Assembly: GCA_017394405.1 (NCBI GenBank) | Contig: JAFPYW010000034.1 | Coordinates: forward strand, 3,333 to 67,332 | Reading direction: 5' to 3' | DNA length: 64,000 nucleotides | From: Alphaproteobacteria bacterium | GTDB lineage: Bacteria; Pseudomonadota; Alphaproteobacteria; CAAHEQ01; UBA3637 | Shown: in pieces, positions 17,378 through 29,329 of the stretch | Position numbering within the stretch: position 1 is the first letter of the stretch | Layout of the letters: the number at the start of each line of letters is the position of its first letter | Made by a program: the position numbers and the translations under genes | The notes under the pieces: model-generated | Databases searched by the model: none | Told to the model about the DNA's origin: nothing | Seen by the model: only the letters and a program-made list of their open reading frames with translations

Positions 17378-20300
17378 CTATTTACACAAGGCATGCCCAC
17401 CAGTATTTGACGGGCCCAAGTGTCTGTTGAGATTACCCATGGTGAAATGAATATACATCATCTTGGAACTATCATAAGGCGTTTGTGTCCAAGACCAATC
17501 ATATCCGTTAGCATCATTTTTACCCAATGCTTTTCTCAAAGCAATCAGGGTTGGACTGTAATTTTCATTTACATATTCCTCAGATTCGGACTTGATAGTG
17601 GTTGCGTCAGACCAATAACCATTCCATGTTGATTGAGCACATGATTTGCCCTGAGCACAACAATAATAAGACGTCGGATTTGTTTGTAATGTATTGCCAT
17701 TGTAGCAACCAACATCTGTTGATTCAATCAAGACCTTTCCTTTTGCAGCGCACCAATTGGCTGCGGACCAATAGTTCATCATATCATCACTTTTAATAAC
17801 GGTGCCCAATCCACTGATGGATGCACTGGCAGAATCACCCAAACTTTGACAGGTACCTTCTTCGGCAGATGTCATTTTGCAATACTCACCATCACCACAT
17901 TGGGTGTTTTTGGTACATGTTACTACGGCCTTAACACATTCGTATGTCGCACAACAACCGGTTTCTGTATTCGTTGCTGTACAGGTTAAATCATATCCGC
18001 TGTCGCAATATGTTGGACCTGTTGGGCCGGTGAAGGTGCTGTCTTTGTCAACACATTGATAATTCTCTGCGAATTCCGTTTGTGTAATGGTGCAAACAAC
18101 GCTCTTTTTCGTCAATTTATCACAATGTGCTGCACCGTCTGATATCGTCATACAAAAACCACTGTCGTAAATTTGGTTTGTGTATTTGCAAGTACATTCG
18201 TTGCTGATACAAATGGCATTTTCATCATCGTTGGAACATACCGTTCCATCGGTTTTGCCCGTGCAATCCGTTATGTCAGATTGGCTTTCTGGTATGACAA
18301 AGCCTTGTCCTGCGCCCGTTGAACTGTCAATACCAAGCAAACAACCCGTACCAGATTGTAAACATTGATACACATATTCATTAAGGAATATAGAATCATA
18401 CGGGATACAGACCTTTGCCGTTTGTTTTGTGTCCGTCATATACACATCTATTTCCATCAATTGGGTACCGCTGCCATAAGTGGCTGTGTCGCAAACAGTA
18501 GCGATACATGTGTTGTTATATTCTTTTATACAATCCCCATTTGATAAACAGGAGTATTCAATACAGCAGGTGCTATCCGAATCGTAACTGGTACATTTTG
18601 GCCAACCGCAACTGGGCTTTTCCAATGGCAGGATATTGTAGTAAGGCGAATCTTTCGCCACACAGCCATTATGTATATATGGCTCACCACTACTTTCGCA
18701 TTCAACAAATTTGTGTGTCAATTTATTGCAGTCCGCTGTATCACCAGACATGGTTTGACATACCTTTACACCAAAATTTTCTGGAGTATTTTGGGTTAAA
18801 TCATAACGTTGCTCTGTCCATTTACAAGTACATTCACCCGCGTAACAAATGAGGTCAGGATCGGCAGTATTGGAACAACTTATTCCATCCGCTTTACCCG
18901 TACAATCGGCCGCATAATCTACGCAGTGAAAAGCGCCTTGCTCAAAAACAACGGTTTGATTGGATTCACAACAAACTGGCTCAATAGCCAAACCATCCAT
19001 TATCGGCATTGGAACTTTTGTGCCATCGCAACAAATTTCTTTCGTTCCAGTTGCTGATTCATAAGATGTACAGTTCTGAGTGGTACCACCCGGCATTTTG
19101 CACAAAGCATGACCACCTTCGTTATAAGGGCTGAGGTGTGTATTCAAGTTGCCATAAGTGAAGTGGACATAAAGTGTTTTGGTGGTACTGTATGCCGTGC
19201 TGGTCCAAGCCCAATCATATCCGTTGGCATCGTTTTTGCCTAATTGTTTTCTTAAAGCAACCAAAATCGGGCTGTAATTTTCATTTACTGTTGCTTCATA
19301 TTCGGGCTTGATGGTTGTTGCATCTTGCCAGTAACCAGCGCTATTCCAAGATCCACAAGATTTACCCGATGCACAACAATAGGCATTACTGGCCTGATTT
19401 GTTACCAAGGTGCTTGTACCACTTTGATAACAACCGATATCTCCGGCTTCAACCAAAGATCCGCCTTGTGCTTCACACCAATTGGCGGCGGCCCATTGAC
19501 TCATCATATCATCACTCTTGATCACGGTTCCTAGATCGGTAATCGTGGCTTGTTCATAGGCGCCCAAAGGTTGACATGACGCATTGGTAATCGTGCTGCC
19601 TTCACCGGTCATCTTACAATATTCACCTTGAGCACAATCTGCATTGCTTTGGCATCCCCATGCGCATTCGTATGTGGCACAACATTCATTGCCGCCAACA
19701 GAGGCAGATTCGGCGCATTGTAATGTGCCATCACAATTTTCATAGTTCGTTGATCCAGTAAAGGTGCTGTCTTTGGCAGCGCAGATGTAGTTTGGTTCCA
19801 ACGTTGTTGTATTGACGCTACAAATAACTGGCTTTTCCGTCAATCTGTTGCATCTTGGCGTATCTGCGATATTTTCACAGGTATAAGTTGCCATATCAAA
19901 GGATTGATCCGTGTACTTACAATTGCATGTTTGGTCTATACAAATTGCATTTTCATCCGAGTCGGAACAACTGGTTCCATCTGCCTTGCCTGTACAGTCA
20001 GCTAAAACGGTCGGATCCCTTTCCATCAAACACAAAGCGTGTCCGCCTTCGTTATGACGTGGCAAGAATGTGTTCACATTACCATAAGTGAAGTAGATAT
20101 AAAGGGTTTTGGCACCATATTCTGTGGCCGTCCAAGACCAATCGTAACCACCACTATCGCCCTTTCCAAGCACTCTGCGCAATTGGATTAAAATTGGGCT
20201 GTAATTTGCATTTACCGTTTCTACGTTTTCGGGTTTGATGGTGGTTGGATCACTCCACAAATCCTTCCAAGACGCGCACGATTTGCCCGAGGCACAACAG

Positions 20301-21205
20301 TACGCACTGCTTTCTTGATCTGTTACCAAAGTGTTCGTGCCGCTCACATAACAACCAAGGTCTGATACTTCAACCAATGCGACACCTTGTGCTGCACACC
20401 AATTGGCGGCGGCCCAATAACTCATCATTTCATCGCTCTTGCGCACATCGCCCAAGCCGGAAATGGTGGCATCCGCATAAGCGCCCAGACTTTGACATGT
20501 ACCGGTGGTCGCGTTGCCGTTTTCACCAATCATCTTGCAATATTCGCCATTGCCACAATCAGCATTAGAGGTGCAACTGACATCGTGTTTGCAAACGCCG
20601 TCTTTTTCCACATAATCAGTAGGACATTTACAACCACCCATTCCATCGGCAACGTGGGTTGCTTCACATCCGCAAGCCCCAGGTGTTGTTGTGTCTGTAC
20701 ATATTTCTTCATCGGTTGCTGGTGCTGGTGGTTGTGGCGTAGGCTGATATCCAGGTTGCACATCAATACATTCGGTTTGTCCAGCATCCGGTTGATAAGT
20801 ATTTTCCGGACAAATTGTTTGTGTAGCACTGCCCGCATTGGGTACATAATAACCAGGTTGTGCTTGTGTGCACGATTCGGCCCCTGCTGCCGCATAAGTT
20901 CCGGCCGCACATAACACACAATGATCTGTCGCTAACACACGTCCCGCTTTACAACGCCAAACTCCGGCGATATATTCGGCCTCTGGATCGTTGGACAAAT
21001 CTGGACCATCGTTAATAATGAATTCCCCTGAATGGCCATCTGCGTGGCGGTGAATACCAAAAGAACTTACACCAGGGTTGTGGCGTTTGTAATAGTTGGA
21101 AGAACTTCCACTATGCCCACCCAATGCCCATGCGGAGTTTGTGCCTGCCACTGAAAGCAATAACAAACTAACGAAAGACAATGCTTGAAATATGTTGTGT
21201 GTCAT
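17378..21205 (-). CDS. Giant secreted cysteine-rich modular protein (1,275 aa): ephrin-receptor/TNFR-like Cys repeats plus 3x lectin/DUF1566-like modules plus 3x small Cys-knot modules
   Basis: Signal peptide MTHNIFQALSFVSLLLLSVAGTNSAWA. AAGGAGGG SD lies upstream of the ATG at 21205. Internal repeats are detailed under the repeat features and findings. Confidence 0.9.
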   Translation of the reverse strand: MTHNIFQALSFVSLLLLSVAGTNSAWALGGHSGSSSNYYKRHNPGVSSFGIHRHADGHSGEFIINDGPDLSNDPEAEYIAGVWRCKAGRVLATDHCVLCAAGTYAAAGAESCTQAQPGYYVPNAGSATQTICPENTYQPDAGQTECIDVQPGYQPTPQPPAPATDEEICTDTTTPGACGCEATHVADGMGGCKCPTDYVEKDGVCKHDVSCTSNADCGNGEYCKMIGENGNATTGTCQSLGAYADATISGLGDVRKSDEMMSYWAAANWCAAQGVALVEVSDLGCYVSGTNTLVTDQESSAYCCASGKSCASWKDLWSDPTTIKPENVETVNANYSPILIQLRRVLGKGDSGGYDWSWTATEYGAKTLYIYFTYGNVNTFLPRHNEGGHALCLMERDPTVLADCTGKADGTSCSDSDENAICIDQTCNCKYTDQSFDMATYTCENIADTPRCNRLTEKPVICSVNTTTLEPNYICAAKDSTFTGSTNYENCDGTLQCAESASVGGNECCATYECAWGCQSNADCAQGEYCKMTGEGSTITNASCQPLGAYEQATITDLGTVIKSDDMMSQWAAANWCEAQGGSLVEAGDIGCYQSGTSTLVTNQASNAYCCASGKSCGSWNSAGYWQDATTIKPEYEATVNENYSPILVALRKQLGKNDANGYDWAWTSTAYSTTKTLYVHFTYGNLNTHLSPYNEGGHALCKMPGGTTQNCTSYESATGTKEICCDGTKVPMPIMDGLAIEPVCCESNQTVVFEQGAFHCVDYAADCTGKADGISCSNTADPDLICYAGECTCKWTEQRYDLTQNTPENFGVKVCQTMSGDTADCNKLTHKFVECESSGEPYIHNGCVAKDSPYYNILPLEKPSCGWPKCTSYDSDSTCCIEYSCLSNGDCIKEYNNTCIATVCDTATYGSGTQLMEIDVYMTDTKQTAKVCIPYDSIFLNEYVYQCLQSGTGCLLGIDSSTGAGQGFVIPESQSDITDCTGKTDGTVCSNDDENAICISNECTCKYTNQIYDSGFCMTISDGAAHCDKLTKKSVVCTITQTEFAENYQCVDKDSTFTGPTGPTYCDSGYDLTCTATNTETGCCATYECVKAVVTCTKNTQCGDGEYCKMTSAEEGTCQSLGDSASASISGLGTVIKSDDMMNYWSAANWCAAKGKVLIESTDVGCYNGNTLQTNPTSYYCCAQGKSCAQSTWNGYWSDATTIKSESEEYVNENYSPTLIALRKALGKNDANGYDWSWTQTPYDSSKMMYIHFTMGNLNRHLGPSNTGGHALCK
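17381..17920 (-). repeat. Intragenic coding repeat A3 (aa 1096-1275) of the giant protein
   Basis: CTKNTQCGDGEYCKM...SDDMMNYWSAANWCAAKGKVLIESTDVGCY...YCCAQGKSC...NYSPTLIALRKALGKNDANGYDWSWT...GGHALCK. Clearly related to A1/A2 at both protein and DNA level. Confidence 0.85.
19100..19657 (-). repeat. Intragenic coding repeat A2 (aa 517-702)
   Basis: GCQSNADCAQGEYCKM...SDDMMSQWAAANWCEAQGGSLVEAGDIGCY...YCCASGKSC...NYSPILVALRKQLGKNDANGYDWAWT...GGHALCK. Confidence 0.85.
20030..20581 (-). repeat. Intragenic coding repeat A1 (aa 209-392)
   Basis: SCTSNADCGNGEYCKM...SDEMMSYWAAANWCAAQGVALVEVSDLGCY...YCCASGKSC...NYSPILIQLRRVLGKGDSGGYDWSWT...GGHALC. Confidence 0.85.
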
Positions 21206-24582: not shown

Positions 24583-26241
24583 ATGCTGACAGCCCTTACA
24601 ATTCAACATTTTGTTTTGATTGATTCGTTGAATTTGACATTTGACAGGGGCTTGGGTGTTTTTACCGGAGAAACCGGCGCCGGCAAATCTATTTTATTGG
24701 ACGCTTTATCTTTGGTTTTAGGGGCTAGGTCTGAAACGCGTTTTATTCAACACGGCTCTGATCAGGCGGTGGTCAGCGCCACTTTTTCGTTGCCAAAATC
24801 TCATCCTGTTTTTCGTTTGTTAAAAGATCAAGGTTTGGAGGCGGATGAGGATTTGATTTTACGCCGCACTTTATCAAAAGATGGCAAAACAAAGGCCTTT
24901 ATTTGTGATCAACCGGTCAGCATTGGTTTGTTGAAAAGCGTAGGTGATTTGTTGGTGGAAATTCACGCCCAATTTGCCTCGCATGCGTTATTGAATCCTG
25001 CAACACATTTGGCAACTTTGGACCGATACGGAAAGTTGGAAAAGCAGGCCGCTGAAGTGGCTGATGCATGGCATAAATACCAAAAAGCGTTGGCGGAATC
25101 AAATGAATTTGAACAAAATTTGAACACACAATTGTCGGAAGAAGATTTGCTGCGTGCCGATTTGGAGGCTTTGGATAAATTAAATCCAAAAGAGGATGAA
25201 GAAGAAACTCTGACAAAACGGCGGGCGGCGTTGATGAATGCGGAACATATTGTGGAAAACATCCAAACTGCATGTGCGTTGTTAGGTGATGATGAACAGG
25301 GAATTTTGCGCTTAATCGGTCGAACAGAAAACCAATTGTTTAATGCCAATAAAACAACGGAAGGTCGCTTTGATAATGAGTTGAAGTCGTTGGCGGAGGC
25401 CGGAAATATCTTGTCTGATTTGTCATCCGATTTGGAACATGCGTTGAATGATTTGGGTGATACATCGGAATTGCCAATGATAGATGATCGCTTGTTTGCT
25501 TTGCGTGATATGGCGCGAAAATATCGAATTTCTATCGCGGAATTGCCAGCTTTTCGGGAAGAAGTGCGACAAAAATTATCCCTAACCGAACATGGCACCC
25601 AAAAATTGGCCGATTTGAAGCAGCGGGCGGAAGAATTGCGTCAAGCATACTATGTGTTGGCAAAAGGATTGTCCAATGCACGGCACAAGGCGGCAATTGA
25701 ATTAAACAAGGCCGTGATGGCGGAGTTGCCCACGCTGAAATTGGAAAAAGCGATTTTTGAAACGGCCGTAACGGATGTGTCGTTGGATCAAGGTTCTGCC
25801 ACGGGTTTGAATGAGGTTGTCTTTATGGTGGCGTTTAACAAAGGATCGCCAATGAATCCGATTCATAAATGTGCATCCGGCGGAGAATTATCGCGGTTTA
25901 TGTTGGCCTTAAAGGTGAATTTGACGGAAGACAATAATCGCACCTTGATTTTTGATGAAATTGACACGGGAATTTCGGGGGCCACAGCGGCTGCCGTTGG
26001 CGAGCGATTGGCACGCTTGGCCGAAAAACATCAAACGCTTGTGATTACACACTCGCCACAGGTGGCGGGCTTTGGTAAGCATCATTATTTGGTGCAAAAA
26101 GCAGATGTGGATGATAAAACTTTGACGTCTGTTTTACAATTGGATAAAGCGGGTCGGTTGGAAGAAATTGCCCGTTTGGTGTCCGGCGCCACAGTCACCG
26201 AAAAATCCCGCGCAGTTGCAAAAGAGTTATTGAAGGTTTAG
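24583..26241 (+). CDS. recN: DNA repair protein RecN
   Basis: 552 aa. N-terminal Walker A FTGETGAGKSILLDAL, a long coiled coil, and C-terminal ASGGELSRFMLALK...LIFDEIDTGISG. Confidence 0.92.
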   Translation: MLTALTIQHFVLIDSLNLTFDRGLGVFTGETGAGKSILLDALSLVLGARSETRFIQHGSDQAVVSATFSLPKSHPVFRLLKDQGLEADEDLILRRTLSKDGKTKAFICDQPVSIGLLKSVGDLLVEIHAQFASHALLNPATHLATLDRYGKLEKQAAEVADAWHKYQKALAESNEFEQNLNTQLSEEDLLRADLEALDKLNPKEDEEETLTKRRAALMNAEHIVENIQTACALLGDDEQGILRLIGRTENQLFNANKTTEGRFDNELKSLAEAGNILSDLSSDLEHALNDLGDTSELPMIDDRLFALRDMARKYRISIAELPAFREEVRQKLSLTEHGTQKLADLKQRAEELRQAYYVLAKGLSNARHKAAIELNKAVMAELPTLKLEKAIFETAVTDVSLDQGSATGLNEVVFMVAFNKGSPMNPIHKCASGGELSRFMLALKVNLTEDNNRTLIFDEIDTGISGATAAAVGERLARLAEKHQTLVITHSPQVAGFGKHHYLVQKADVDDKTLTSVLQLDKAGRLEEIARLVSGATVTEKSRAVAKELLKV

Positions 26242-26252
26242 GAAAATAATCC

Positions 26253-26282
26253 TTGACTTTTTTTGGAGGTTTGTGGTATAGT
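26253..26282 (+). promoter_or_regulatory. Sigma70-type promoter 12 bp downstream of the recN stop
   Basis: TTGACT (26253-26258), 18-nt spacer, TATAGT (26277-26282). Confidence 0.45.
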
Positions 26283-26298
26283 ATTCCAAGTTAAATCG

Positions 26299-26323
26299 GA
26301 GCAGTCTATCTGCTCTTTTTTTT
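26299..26323 (+). terminator. Intrinsic terminator hairpin 1
   Basis: GAGCAG-tctat-CTGCTC followed by T8. Confidence 0.65.
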
Positions 26324-26325
26324 AT

Positions 26326-26357
26326 GCCCATAGGAAATGACTCCTGTGGGCTTTTTT
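26326..26357 (+). terminator. Intrinsic terminator hairpin 2
   Basis: GCCCATAGG-aaatgact-CCTGTGGGC (9 bp, one G-U pair) followed by T6. Confidence 0.65.
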
Positions 26358-26377
26358 ATTAACTGAAAGGAAATAAA

Positions 26378-26833
26378 ATGACAGATAAAGCAAGATTATT
26401 ATTTGATGGAAGCTCATTAAAATGGGAAGAAGGTGGAGACGTTGTCAAAGAGTGGCCAGCTATGTCAGGCAAGGCAGATTTCCAAAGTAGCGAATATACA
26501 TGTGTGCCTGATGTTGGGCCAATTCCCGAAGGAAAATGGCATGTGAAACAAGAAAATCATCAATCTGCAGATTTTATTGATCATGCCTTAGGCTCTATTG
26601 GATTTGGCAAATGGCGAGGAGGATACTCTTCGTGGGGAGATGACCGAATTTGGTTAGAACCAGATAAAAAAACAAATACTCAAGGGCGCACAAATTTATC
26701 TATTCACGGCGGATCAGATCTTGGTTCCAAGGGGTGTATTGATTTGGCTGGCGGCATGAGCAACTTTGTGAGCTATTTTGATTCTCATGGAGAGGATATG
26801 GACTTAATTGTTGAATACCCGGATTGGTTTTGA
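26378..26833 (+). CDS. DUF2778/Tlde1-like protein (L,D-transpeptidase-fold peptidoglycan-targeting toxin family)
   Basis: 151 aa with no signal peptide. Contains VPDVGPIPEGKWHV ... RIWLEPDKKTNTQGRTNLSIHGGSDLGSKGCIDL. The His..(S/T)xGC(I/V) catalytic arrangement (H110, C120) resembles YkuD/Tlde1 as I remember it. Confidence 0.65.
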   Translation: MTDKARLLFDGSSLKWEEGGDVVKEWPAMSGKADFQSSEYTCVPDVGPIPEGKWHVKQENHQSADFIDHALGSIGFGKWRGGYSSWGDDRIWLEPDKKTNTQGRTNLSIHGGSDLGSKGCIDLAGGMSNFVSYFDSHGEDMDLIVEYPDWF

Positions 26834-26884
26834 CATTGACATTTAAATAAATATGAAACAAAATTGGGTTCAAGGGGTATCTTG

Positions 26885-27226
26885 ATGAGTAAAAAGGATA
26901 TATTTAAAAAGTTTGTTATTACTATTTTTATATCAATTGTTTGTTTGTTTATATTGTTATATACAACAGATGCAATAAATATGATTTTTGTTCACCCCTT
27001 TGAGTATTGGGGGAGTGAGCCCTTTAGTGATTGTTGGTATTATAAATCTGCAACACATTATGGCCTACGTGCTGTATTAGATGTGATCATCTGTTTGATT
27101 TGCTTGTATTGTGTTTTGAAATACCACAGAAAGCACTTTGGAAGAATTGCTATTTTAATATTATGTTATCTATTGTGGACTTTTAAATATCCGATAAAAA
27201 TCTGGATCAAGCATTTATTCTTTTGA
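26885..27226 (+). CDS. Small polytopic membrane protein (candidate cognate immunity protein)
   Basis: 113 aa from the ATG at 26885 (AAGGGG upstream). Three hydrophobic spans: FVITIFISIVCLFILLY, LRAVLDVIICLICLYCVL and IAILILCYLLWTF. Very AT-rich by eye. Confidence 0.6.
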   Translation: MSKKDIFKKFVITIFISIVCLFILLYTTDAINMIFVHPFEYWGSEPFSDCWYYKSATHYGLRAVLDVIICLICLYCVLKYHRKHFGRIAILILCYLLWTFKYPIKIWIKHLFF

Positions 27227-27229
27227 TAA

Positions 27230-29329
<2,100 letters not shown>

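Follow-up and report, generated by a model that had tools for sequence, protein, structure and literature searches.

A Tlde1-family enzyme and a small membrane protein as a putative toxin-immunity cassette between recN and ligA of an uncultured gut alphaproteobacterium

A two-gene cassette of roughly 1 kb separates recN from ligA in an uncultured gut alphaproteobacterium. We analyzed it within a stretch of 64,000 nucleotides of contig JAFPYW010000034.1 (positions 3,333 to 67,332; hereafter the window). The first gene of the cassette (gene 1) encodes a leaderless enzyme of the Tlde1/DUF2778 family and the second (gene 2) a small inner-membrane protein, and the two most likely form a toxin-immunity pair. 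The open reading frames (ORFs), their coordinates and the flanking genes, including bamD (YfiO match, E 2e-54), are present as described in a first-pass annotation made from the sequence alone, and are listed with the other features of the locus in Table 1. Both genes start with ATG behind a Shine-Dalgarno sequence (AAGGA 6 nt upstream of gene 1, AAGGGG 7 nt upstream of gene 2), and gene 2 begins 51 nt past the stop of gene 1. The list of ORFs extends gene 2 to a TTG at 26864; public gene calls return exactly the 113-amino-acid product (P0022), and ATG 26885 is most plausibly the true start.

Table 1. Coordinates of the cassette, its flanking genes and its predicted expression signals in the window
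Feature	Coordinates	Strand	Remarks
Gene 1, 151 amino acids, leaderless Tlde1/DUF2778-family L,D-transpeptidase-fold enzyme, putative peptidoglycan toxin	26378..26833	+	
Gene 2, 113 amino acids, inner-membrane protein with three transmembrane segments, putative cognate immunity protein ('family A')	26885..27226	+	
recN, left flank	24583..26241	+	Pfam SMC_N and AAA_23; 77-79% identical to recN of three alphaproteobacterial metagenome-assembled genomes
ligA, right flank	27272..29329	+	NAD-dependent; Pfam DNA_ligase_aden and others
Sigma-70-like promoter TTGACT-18-TATAGT, extended -10 TG	26253..26282	+	Consensus scan, 10/12 matches; directly 3' of recN stop; putative function
Leader hairpin 1 followed by T-run, terminator-like	26298..26316	+	Stem sequence differs in L001/L013, still pairs
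Leader hairpin 2 followed by T-run, terminator-like, 10 pairs	26326..26351	+	Compensatory changes in L001/L013
Promoter-like TTGACA-17-CAAAAT, spacer between gene 1 and gene 2	26836..26864	+	Consensus scan only, 10/12 matches

Although divergent, gene 1 is a true member of the Tlde1 superfamily. Its match to the Pfam family PF10908 (Tlde1_dom) over residues 27-124 is borderline, with 30.1 bits (E 7e-7) at a gathering cut-off of 30.1, and its score against the YkuD profile (20.6 bits) is below threshold. The relatives of gene 1 score 28.7-41 bits against PF10908, and most of its homologs carry a precomputed match to this family. A single-sequence search of the PDB sequences with gene 1 gave no match. 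A profile of gene 1 and 18 homologs matches Salmonella Tlde1a (7UMA/7UO8, E 1.9e-5), with an alignment that spans from the N-terminal 'LxFDG' through the catalytic segment. The AlphaFold2 model of gene 1, built on the family alignment, has a mean predicted local distance difference test score (pLDDT) of 91 and a predicted template modeling score (pTM) of 0.86. When this model is compared with the PDB using Foldseek, the top three matches are all entries of Tlde1a (E 6e-8 to 3e-7, template modeling score 0.69-0.71), followed by Bd1075, YkuD, mycobacterial L,D-transpeptidases (LdtMt) and Csd6. The first-pass annotation had proposed a Tlde1/DUF2778 protein with the L,D-transpeptidase fold and an overlay of its model on L,D-transpeptidase structures; the family match at the cut-off, the profile search and the Foldseek comparison, with Tlde1a as the best structure, all bear out the assignment.

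The catalytic motif of gene 1 is intact. Residues H110, G111, G112, G116, S117, G119, C120, D122, R104, W86, G87 and R90, as well as the GP.PEG.W block, are invariant in 19 homologs. The presumed catalytic pair, H110 (26705-26707) and C120 (26735-26737), and the motifs around it are found where they had been placed from the sequence. The segment H110-x9-C120 (IHGGSDLGSKGC) aligns with H121-x9-C131 of Tlde1a (IHDSTKGYSHGC), and a His-Cys spacing shorter than that of YkuD enzymes was recognized as a trait of DUF2778 in the original Tlde1 study. Overall, H110, S117, G119, C120 and R104 align with H121, S128, G130, C131 and R115 of Tlde1a, which were either probed by mutagenesis or named as functionally important in the structural paper (PMC9638812). 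R115 and G130, which belong to the D-amino-acid pocket, are apparently conserved across the Tlde1 subfamilies (PMC9638812). In the published alignment of the Tlde1 family (PMC9638812, supplement 3), which we used for placement, the nearest sequence to gene 1 is WP_078223291.1 (36% identity, E 3e-21), a member of the 'FFIHGG...GSAGCIDL' subgroup. The family profile of gene 1 accordingly scores 79 bits against this subgroup, 27.6 bits against Tlde1a and 14 bits or less against the 'RLHP...S.GCITL' group.

The N-terminus of gene 1 (MTDKARLLFDGSS...) has no hydrophobic stretch and hence no signal peptide, in line with the first-pass annotation. Because it lacks a signal peptide, the enzyme would be harmless in the cytoplasm of the producer and would need a delivery route. 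Gene 1 is under strong purifying selection, with a ratio of nonsynonymous to synonymous substitution rates (dN/dS) of 0.05 at a dS of about 1.1 when compared with its 91% identical homolog P0001.

Gene 2 has three transmembrane segments in a hydropathy scan (residues 10-26, 63-79 and 84-100), as had been read from the sequence. The distribution of charges puts the basic N-terminus inside, the acidic loop 28-61 outside, the basic loop 80-88 inside and the C-terminus outside, and in this predicted topology the conserved acidic and aromatic loop (residues 28-61, ...HPFEYWGSEPFSDCWYYKSATHYG...) would face the periplasm. No Pfam, NCBIfam, PHROG or PADLOC family matches gene 2 above threshold. There is no match to DUF2195 either, and gene 2 is not of the Tldi1a type. 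An anti-phage defense system was also considered and rejected, as PADLOC returned no matches. A search of 1.84 billion representatives retrieved two real relatives in addition to gene 2 itself, and a word-indexed search retrieved five more. These close homologs (P0023, P0025-P0030) have in common the loop M-x-F-x-H/D-P-F-x-x-W-G-x-E...W-Y-Y-K-S...Y. A further protein, P0024 (711 amino acids), was matched in 10 stretches by the gene 2 search and discarded as spurious, being a low-complexity tandem repeat that probably derives from translation of a eukaryotic repeat. Evolution is faster in gene 2 (dN/dS 0.31-0.35) than in gene 1, yet gene 2 is still constrained, as expected for immunity genes.

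To place the cassette among related genomes, we scanned the RecN of the window against contigs from one genome per species, which covered the contiguity of bamD, recN and ligA in close relatives. The scan identified three uncultured alphaproteobacterial metagenome-assembled genomes (MAGs), sampled from the human gut, the rumen and a goat abomasum, whose RecN is 77-79% identical to that of the window. In the closest of them (L012, human gut), where recN and LigA are 79% and 92% identical to those of the window, the distance from the recN stop to the ligA ATG is 48 nt as compared to 1030 nt in the window. The gene pair is therefore an insertion of about 980 bp, and the claim that it interrupts an otherwise contiguous recN-ligA block holds in close relatives. 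In the rumen MAG (L013) and in three metagenomic contigs (L001-L003), a variant of gene 1 directly follows recN, and in the goat MAG (L014) the gap between recN and ligA is filled by a different cargo. The cassette variants at this site in related gut and rumen alphaproteobacteria include some with an N-terminal MuF-type motif and with arrays of partner genes. Given the empty site in L012, the variants in L001-L003 and L013 and the other cargo in L014, the recN-ligA junction is a variable hot spot of polymorphic toxins in this lineage. Relatives do not all carry the cassette, and it is not a housekeeping element. Nor is it the one-off orphan that had been suggested, since variants of it occupy the same site. 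The GC content is 0.30-0.34 across 26650-27250, which comprises gene 2 and its surroundings, as compared to 0.42-0.48 in recN and ligA, so that gene 2 is indeed AT-rich; gene 1 (0.40-0.43) is not compositionally distinct.

We examined the genomic contexts of gene 1 homologs in eight contig look-ups and 49 metagenomic loci, and counted as a partner any ORF of 60-170 amino acids with at least two transmembrane segments that starts between -30 and +250 nt from the stop of the toxin gene. Such a partner lies downstream in 22 out of the 34 non-redundant toxin clusters with enough downstream sequence, and upstream in one more. The background is 11% (90 out of 806) of the mechanically called ORFs of the same size elsewhere in the same loci. 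In addition, a hidden Markov model built from the proteins found with the gene 2 query preferentially recovers ORFs immediately downstream of toxins. Profile comparison with hhalign associates the gene 2 family with the partners at L034, L038, L051 and the high-GC L029 (probability 91%, E 9e-7, 73 columns) and with those at L019-L021 and L008 (77%, E 2e-5). What gene 2 and these distant partners have in common is the periplasmic loop, as seen in YRFGTEIAGWRYYSKYHY and YTFGTEAGGWLYRSARHY compared with FEYWGSEPFSDCWYYKSATHY.

The partner genes often occur in arrays or persist where the toxin does not. Behind the toxin, we found partners of families A, B and A' in L009, A' and B in L011, B and B' in L001, and four or five paralogs in L026. 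Remnants of the toxin 3' end lie between the partner genes in L001, L009, L074 and L075; L072 and L073 retain 14 codons of a toxin followed by an intact family A gene, and L010 has family A without a toxin. In human-gut contigs of up to 330 kb (L040-L046, for example L042:6010-6680), a C-terminal toxin stump of 95 amino acids is followed by an intact partner, a membrane protein of 106-120 amino acids with the loop MPWNAE[AT]LGWAYE[NK]KINY, which looks like a widespread orphan immunity gene. The linkage, the arrays and orphans, and the hhalign matches to distant partners all agree with the first-pass suggestion that gene 2 is the cognate immunity gene.

Elsewhere in the clade, the toxin gene precedes small membrane proteins of other, unrelated families (B, C, D, E and F). 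The idea that all partner families belong to one superfamily was rejected, as hhalign joins only subgroups of family A, whereas B, C, D and E are related neither to A nor to one another, apart from weak signals between B and C. Likewise, the length of the central loop of the toxin (short or long) does not predict the partner family (A or B), since P0001 has a short loop and a partner of family B. At L078:5001-5700 (Ralstonia syzygii megaplasmid, WP_078223291.1) and L076:6935-7674 (Eleftheria terrae), an ORF with two transmembrane segments and the loop G-x-G-P-P-Y-Y-G-x-T-T-N-M-D-K-W lies downstream of the toxin. The same loop recurs in the partners at L048 and L054 and defines the unannotated family F. 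Annotated phage and plasmid collections contributed few matches (2 and 4 records, respectively).

The toxin domain occurs in several architectures. The bare form found in the window recurs in several lineages (P0001, P0002, P0003 and P0006). In P0004-P0010 the domain lies behind a MuF core of 55-66 amino acids (phrog_324, E 2e-21), which in L030 is above the Pfam cut-off. It also forms the C-terminus of a 717-amino-acid protein encoded directly after a phage portal gene (L035), and is fused to a Pesticin lysozyme (L023), to Peptidase_C39_2 (L029), to Peptidase_M15_4 (L055) or to PG_binding_1. In L024 it follows an Rhs-like core tip, '...NNPVRYTDPDGR', an assignment made by sequence motif only. 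Fusions of this kind (MuF, Rhs-like, Pesticin and PG-binding) are typical of polymorphic toxin systems. The MuF core is also present on chromosomal relatives outside any recognizable prophage (L001:10001-10180, L009:4289-4462, L011:25-207 and L013:3087-3203), with the motif W-x-T-x-x-D-x-[RK]-V-R...H...G...F...P...NCRC. In gene 1 of the window the MuF segment is missing and the toxin domain begins at the N-terminus. The MuF-bearing chromosomal relatives and this tag-less form have the leader, the start codon and the codon after it in common, as if the MuF segment had been precisely inserted or deleted in frame. A 94-kb phage-like contig from Hadza gut (L004:9264-11218) carries, in this order, a holin-like ORF with one transmembrane segment, a Phage_lysozyme gene, a 265-amino-acid protein with the Tlde1 domain and a 112-amino-acid ORF with several transmembrane segments, the last two of which are a putative toxin-immunity pair at the end of a lysis cassette.

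Between recN and gene 1, the order of elements at 26253-26377 is unusual: a strong promoter-like site is followed by two terminator-like hairpins, and only then by the Shine-Dalgarno sequence and the start of gene 1. The promoter-like site is conserved in the alignment of L001, L003 and L013 and absent from the empty site of L012, which makes it part of the cassette as judged from these comparisons. The leader folds with a z-score of -5.0, and compensatory changes maintain the pairing of both stems in L001 and L013. No Rfam family matches the leader at threshold, and the search returned only sub-threshold matches. The leader could be an attenuator or a small RNA that controls toxin expression, or else the hairpins could be recN terminators beside a chance promoter. 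The promoter-like site in the spacer between the two genes could serve as a separate candidate promoter for gene 2. A direct repeat of 23 nt, 83% identical, lies at 26721-26743 and 26864-26886; the first copy codes for LGSKGCID, the catalytic motif of gene 1, and the second, directly 5' of the gene 2 ATG, reads LGSRGILM in frame. This repeat may be a recombination scar of an earlier toxin-immunity junction or may be due to chance, as it overlaps the Shine-Dalgarno sequence of gene 2.

At the right end of the cassette, ligA likely starts at ATG 27272 (MQTREEIKQ...) rather than at the TTG 27248 of the ORF list. In the alignment with L012 and L014, both the N-terminus MQT[RK]EEI and the TTGCTT-17-TA.A.T upstream of it are conserved. 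In the window, TTGCTT-17-TACAAT (27237-27274) precedes ligA with its end 6 nt before the ATG, and this promoter-like site suggests that the ligA mRNA is leaderless or nearly so. The -35 region of this candidate promoter (CTTG[A/C]xTTTT...) occurs at both ends of the cassette (26252-26267 and 27236-27252) and once at the empty site of L012. This short imperfect duplication might mark the insertion event, but is suggestive only. A repeat finder detected no flanking repeats as a signature of integration and did not pick up this duplication. The cargo of the goat MAG (L014:2650-3330) consists of a 72-amino-acid ORF with one transmembrane segment and many cysteines, and of a fragment that is similar to the C-terminal end of a phage-type lysozyme; from this cargo, the recN-ligA site may collect different wall-targeting toxin modules.

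We interpret gene 1 and gene 2 as a Tlde1-type cell-wall toxin with its membrane-bound immunity protein, and put the probability of this reading at roughly 70%. It is built on what was computed, namely the family, the fold, the intact and invariant catalytic motif, the insertion, the linkage, the arrays and orphans, and the purifying selection. The enzymatic activity and toxicity of gene 1, its neutralization by gene 2 and, most of all, the way in which it is delivered are inferred. By homology to Tlde1a, gene 1 would be a cysteine-dependent (Cys-His) L,D-carboxypeptidase/transpeptidase. In the periplasm of the target cell, it would shorten tetrapeptide stems to tripeptides or replace their terminal D-Ala, in keeping with the activity of Tlde1a on tetrapeptide stems, from which the terminal D-Ala is removed or exchanged (PMC9638812). 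Stem trimming or D-Ala exchange would starve cross-linking and lead to failure of the cell wall. Gene 2, sitting in the inner membrane, would block the incoming toxin with its aromatic and acidic periplasmic loop and thus protect kin cells.

The delivery route is the missing piece of this toxin-immunity reading. None of the 20 largest ORFs of the window that we scanned, all of them housekeeping, nor the immediate neighbors of the cassette, are type VI secretion system (T6SS), Hcp, PAAR, Rhs, VgrG or phage structural genes, and the first-pass statement that the window has no T6SS, Rhs or VgrG genes stands for these ORFs. No T6SS or other secretion genes were found among the Pfam-annotated or sampled neighbors of the relatives (13 bacterial or phage loci), and no T6SS genes among the annotated features around the Eleftheria homolog. 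Since bare gene 1 is built like the cargo effector Tlde1a, the genome may encode a T6SS at some other place, and the toxin could be loaded as T6SS cargo or could take a phage-related route whose genes likewise lie elsewhere.

Besides the absence of a secretion system in the examined contexts, several observations weigh against this interpretation. The Pfam score of gene 1 falls exactly on the threshold, and the AlphaFold2 model of gene 2 is of low confidence (pLDDT 65), too poor for a fold comparison. P0001, although 91% identical to gene 1, is followed by a member of the unrelated family B and not of family A, a pairing that is awkward for a strictly cognate one-to-one immunity. Either partner family may suffice in this case, or specificity may reside in the few differences, which cluster at residues 73-80, or the array may have been trimmed in a lineage-specific manner. 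Finally, some relatives are located in phage lysis or structural regions, such as beside a lysozyme (L004) or beside baseplate genes (L015 and L016), and matches in BFVD show that the fold of gene 1 is also found in a phage endolysin and in a tape-measure protein. The domain therefore also serves roles other than that of a toxin.

These phage contexts are the starting point of the strongest competing explanation, which we nevertheless consider unlikely. The cassette would be a phage-derived lysis or release module, in which a holin-like gene 2 would let the leaderless gene 1 reach the periplasm, lysing the producer or releasing its contents in the manner of holin/endolysin-type secretion. The order of the two genes, a leaderless peptidoglycan enzyme and then a small polytopic membrane protein, is that of classic endolysin-holin cassettes, the PG_binding_1 fusions resemble Gram-negative endolysins, and an annotated endolysin is among the BFVD matches. 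Furthermore, homologs lie beside Phage_lysozyme in L004 and just upstream of the terminase in L006 and in phage JC1 (gp41-gp42, PMC9144972). However, L004 has its own holin-like ORF and lysozyme upstream of the pair, and no phage genes are present among the window ORFs scanned. Gene 2 and ten partner representatives did not match any holin family of Pfam or PHROGs, except for one sub-threshold match of the Eleftheria ORF. Class I holins have a charged cytoplasmic C-terminal tail, which gene 2 lacks; its conserved, structured periplasmic loop and its predicted orientation with the N-terminus inside and the C-terminus outside also argue against a holin. The same enzyme domain is carried by Rhs-like and MuF delivery modules, and chemistry of the Tlde1 type trims stems while leaving cross-links uncut. 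The arrays of two to five paralogs with toxin 3' remnants, and the intact orphans beside deleted or truncated enzymes, fit immunity genes and not holins.

A more speculative proposal, which we regard as improbable, keeps the toxin and changes its vehicle. The clade would be a T6SS-independent branch of Tlde1 delivered by phage-like particles through the MuF tag, with the membrane proteins protecting the recipients and the terminators silencing the toxin. The MuF core of about 55 amino acids in the chromosomal relatives at the same recN site would act as an address tag for portal or capsid, by which a resident prophage or gene-transfer agent would have its heads loaded in trans with the wall enzyme. 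In the periplasm of recipients, protection would come from the small membrane proteins, and the conserved leader, with two tandem terminators behind the promoter, would hold the toxin silent until particles are produced. The tag-less form of the window would then be an alternative cargo form or a variant that maintains immunity.

A housekeeping role is very unlikely. In this case, gene 1 would serve the producer as an L,D-carboxypeptidase that recycles or remodels murein from the cytoplasm, and gene 2 would be functionally unrelated or accessory. The absence of an export signal and the strong purifying selection on gene 1 are compatible with such a role, YkuD-fold L,D-carboxypeptidases with cellular functions are known, two of which (Csd6 and Bd1075) the fold comparison returned, and the original Tlde1 study allowed that some members of the family merely remodel peptidoglycan. 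Against it stand the patchy distribution, with the gene absent at the same site in the closest relative, the occurrence in phages and the fusion to toxin-delivery and other wall-degrading toxin modules. The tight linkage, across many unrelated genomes, to small membrane ORFs that evolve fast, the existence of orphan partners and toxin remnants, and the AT-rich composition of gene 2, which is consistent with horizontal acquisition, point in the same direction. The least probable explanation, that the cassette is a decaying relic neither expressed nor used after loss of an N-terminal MuF-type delivery module, can draw on the missing segment of 55-66 amino acids that L001 and L013 have at the same locus behind a common leader and the same first two codons, on the two terminator-like hairpins between the promoter-like site and gene 1 and on the lack of a delivery system in view, but is contradicted by two intact ORFs with good Shine-Dalgarno sequences, the recurrence of the bare 151-amino-acid form in several lineages, the long-term constraint on gene 1, the retention of every catalytic residue and the precedent of Tlde1a, a single-domain effector that likewise has no delivery domain.

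Elsewhere in the window, the minus strand encodes a secreted and extremely cysteine-rich protein of 1275 amino acids (17378-21205) with three long repeats, each of which ends in the conserved module ...SGLG[DT]V[IR]KSD[DE]MM.[YQ]W[AS]AANWC.A[KQ]G...GGHALC.

If gene 1 and gene 2 are a toxin-immunity pair, a reading that specialists would expect rather than find surprising, the Tlde1 family of peptidoglycan toxins extends into uncultured gut and rumen alphaproteobacteria. The partner defines an unannotated family of small membrane proteins with the periplasmic loop [FYW]-x-[FW]-G-x-E...W-x-Y-x-S...H-Y, a candidate for catalogues of immunity genes, and the recN-ligA junction is a site where wall-targeting toxin cassettes are swapped in this lineage. 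The MuF-type fusions and the absence of T6SS genes in the examined contexts offer a concrete lead, still hypothetical, to a T6SS-independent transport of leaderless wall toxins.

Much of the surrounding framework has already been published. This includes the Tlde1 (DUF2778) superfamily with its three subfamilies, occasional Rhs fusions and members away from T6SS genes, the immunity proteins with transmembrane segments of one Tlde1 subfamily, and the 'LD-peptidase' toxin domain listed among polymorphic toxins. RefSeq also annotates standalone 'tlde1 domain-containing protein' genes with small membrane ORFs downstream, and in phage JC1 a DUF2778 gene and, behind it, a small ORF are annotated ahead of the terminase (PMC9144972). 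In the literature searched we did not find fusions of MuF and Tlde1, especially not a minimal MuF core on chromosomal, non-prophage genes, nor the family A partner with its loop motif, nor the recN-ligA hot spot.

When compared with known systems, the cassette shares with phage holin-endolysin cassettes a leaderless wall enzyme with a small polytopic membrane protein, and some homologs lie in phage lysis regions; it differs in that no holin family matches, the partners occur in arrays and as orphans and the enzyme is fused to delivery modules. Relatives of gene 1 resemble the MuF polymorphic toxins (Jamet et al. 2017, PMC5576092; Zhang et al. 2012, PMC3482391) in having an N-terminal MuF core and immunity-like ORFs behind it, and the relative at L035 likewise lies directly after a phage portal gene. 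MuF toxins are described as exclusive to phages and prophages, with no peptidoglycan-targeting domain mentioned (PMC5576092), whereas the chromosomal relatives carry only about 55 amino acids of MuF outside prophages, gene 1 of the window has no MuF (PF04233) domain, and the window ORFs scanned include no phage genes.

Tlde1c with its immunity protein Tai7 (Tae7 family) is similar to the gene 1 clade by description, in that its immunity proteins have transmembrane segments, some members are fused to Rhs and many are not beside a T6SS. Gene 2 fits the description of a Tai7/Tldi1c-like protein (small, at least one transmembrane segment, next to the toxin), a criterion that is purely descriptive. 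According to the original Tlde1 study, 43-77% of the genomes of the published Tlde1 families have a member near T6SS genes; the value for Tae7 is 43% near T6SS structural genes, as compared to none in the contexts examined for the gene 1 clade. The 'FFIHGG...GSAGCIDL' subgroup, although its hosts are betaproteobacteria, shares with gene 1 the motif IHGG...GS.GCIDL..M..F. Its member WP_078223291.1 is standalone, as is the Eleftheria terrae homolog (RefSeq 'tlde1 domain-containing protein'), and has a small membrane ORF directly downstream. This family F partner differs from gene 2 in having two transmembrane segments and the GxGPPYYGxTTNMDKW loop, with no sequence similarity. The first-pass annotation had held that known Tldi immunity proteins are soluble and periplasmic, which is incomplete, and had seen in the cassette a possible module of a new flavor. 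Since published Tlde1 immunity proteins also include ones with transmembrane segments and WP_078223291.1 is followed by such an ORF, a membrane partner is not new in kind, even if the family of gene 2 itself is unannotated.

The best-characterized counterpart is Tlde1a/Tldi1a from SPI-6 of Salmonella Typhimurium (Tae5/Tai5; PDB 7UMA, 7UO3 and 7UO8). Identity between Tlde1a and gene 1 is only 25-32%, the residue that is H in Tlde1a (S-H-G-C) is K in gene 1 (S-K-G-C), and Tlde1a lies in a T6SS cluster while gene 1, in the window ORFs scanned, does not. The partners also differ, with Tldi1a being a Sec-exported DUF2195 protein encoded upstream and gene 2 a protein with three transmembrane segments encoded downstream. 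Nevertheless, both enzymes are leaderless single-domain proteins of 150-175 amino acids with an L,D-transpeptidase-like fold, the same H-x9-C spacing, equivalent R, S and G residues and a variable insert where Tlde1a has its capping subdomain, and both are encoded in a bicistron with a small protective gene, a role that is putative for gene 2.

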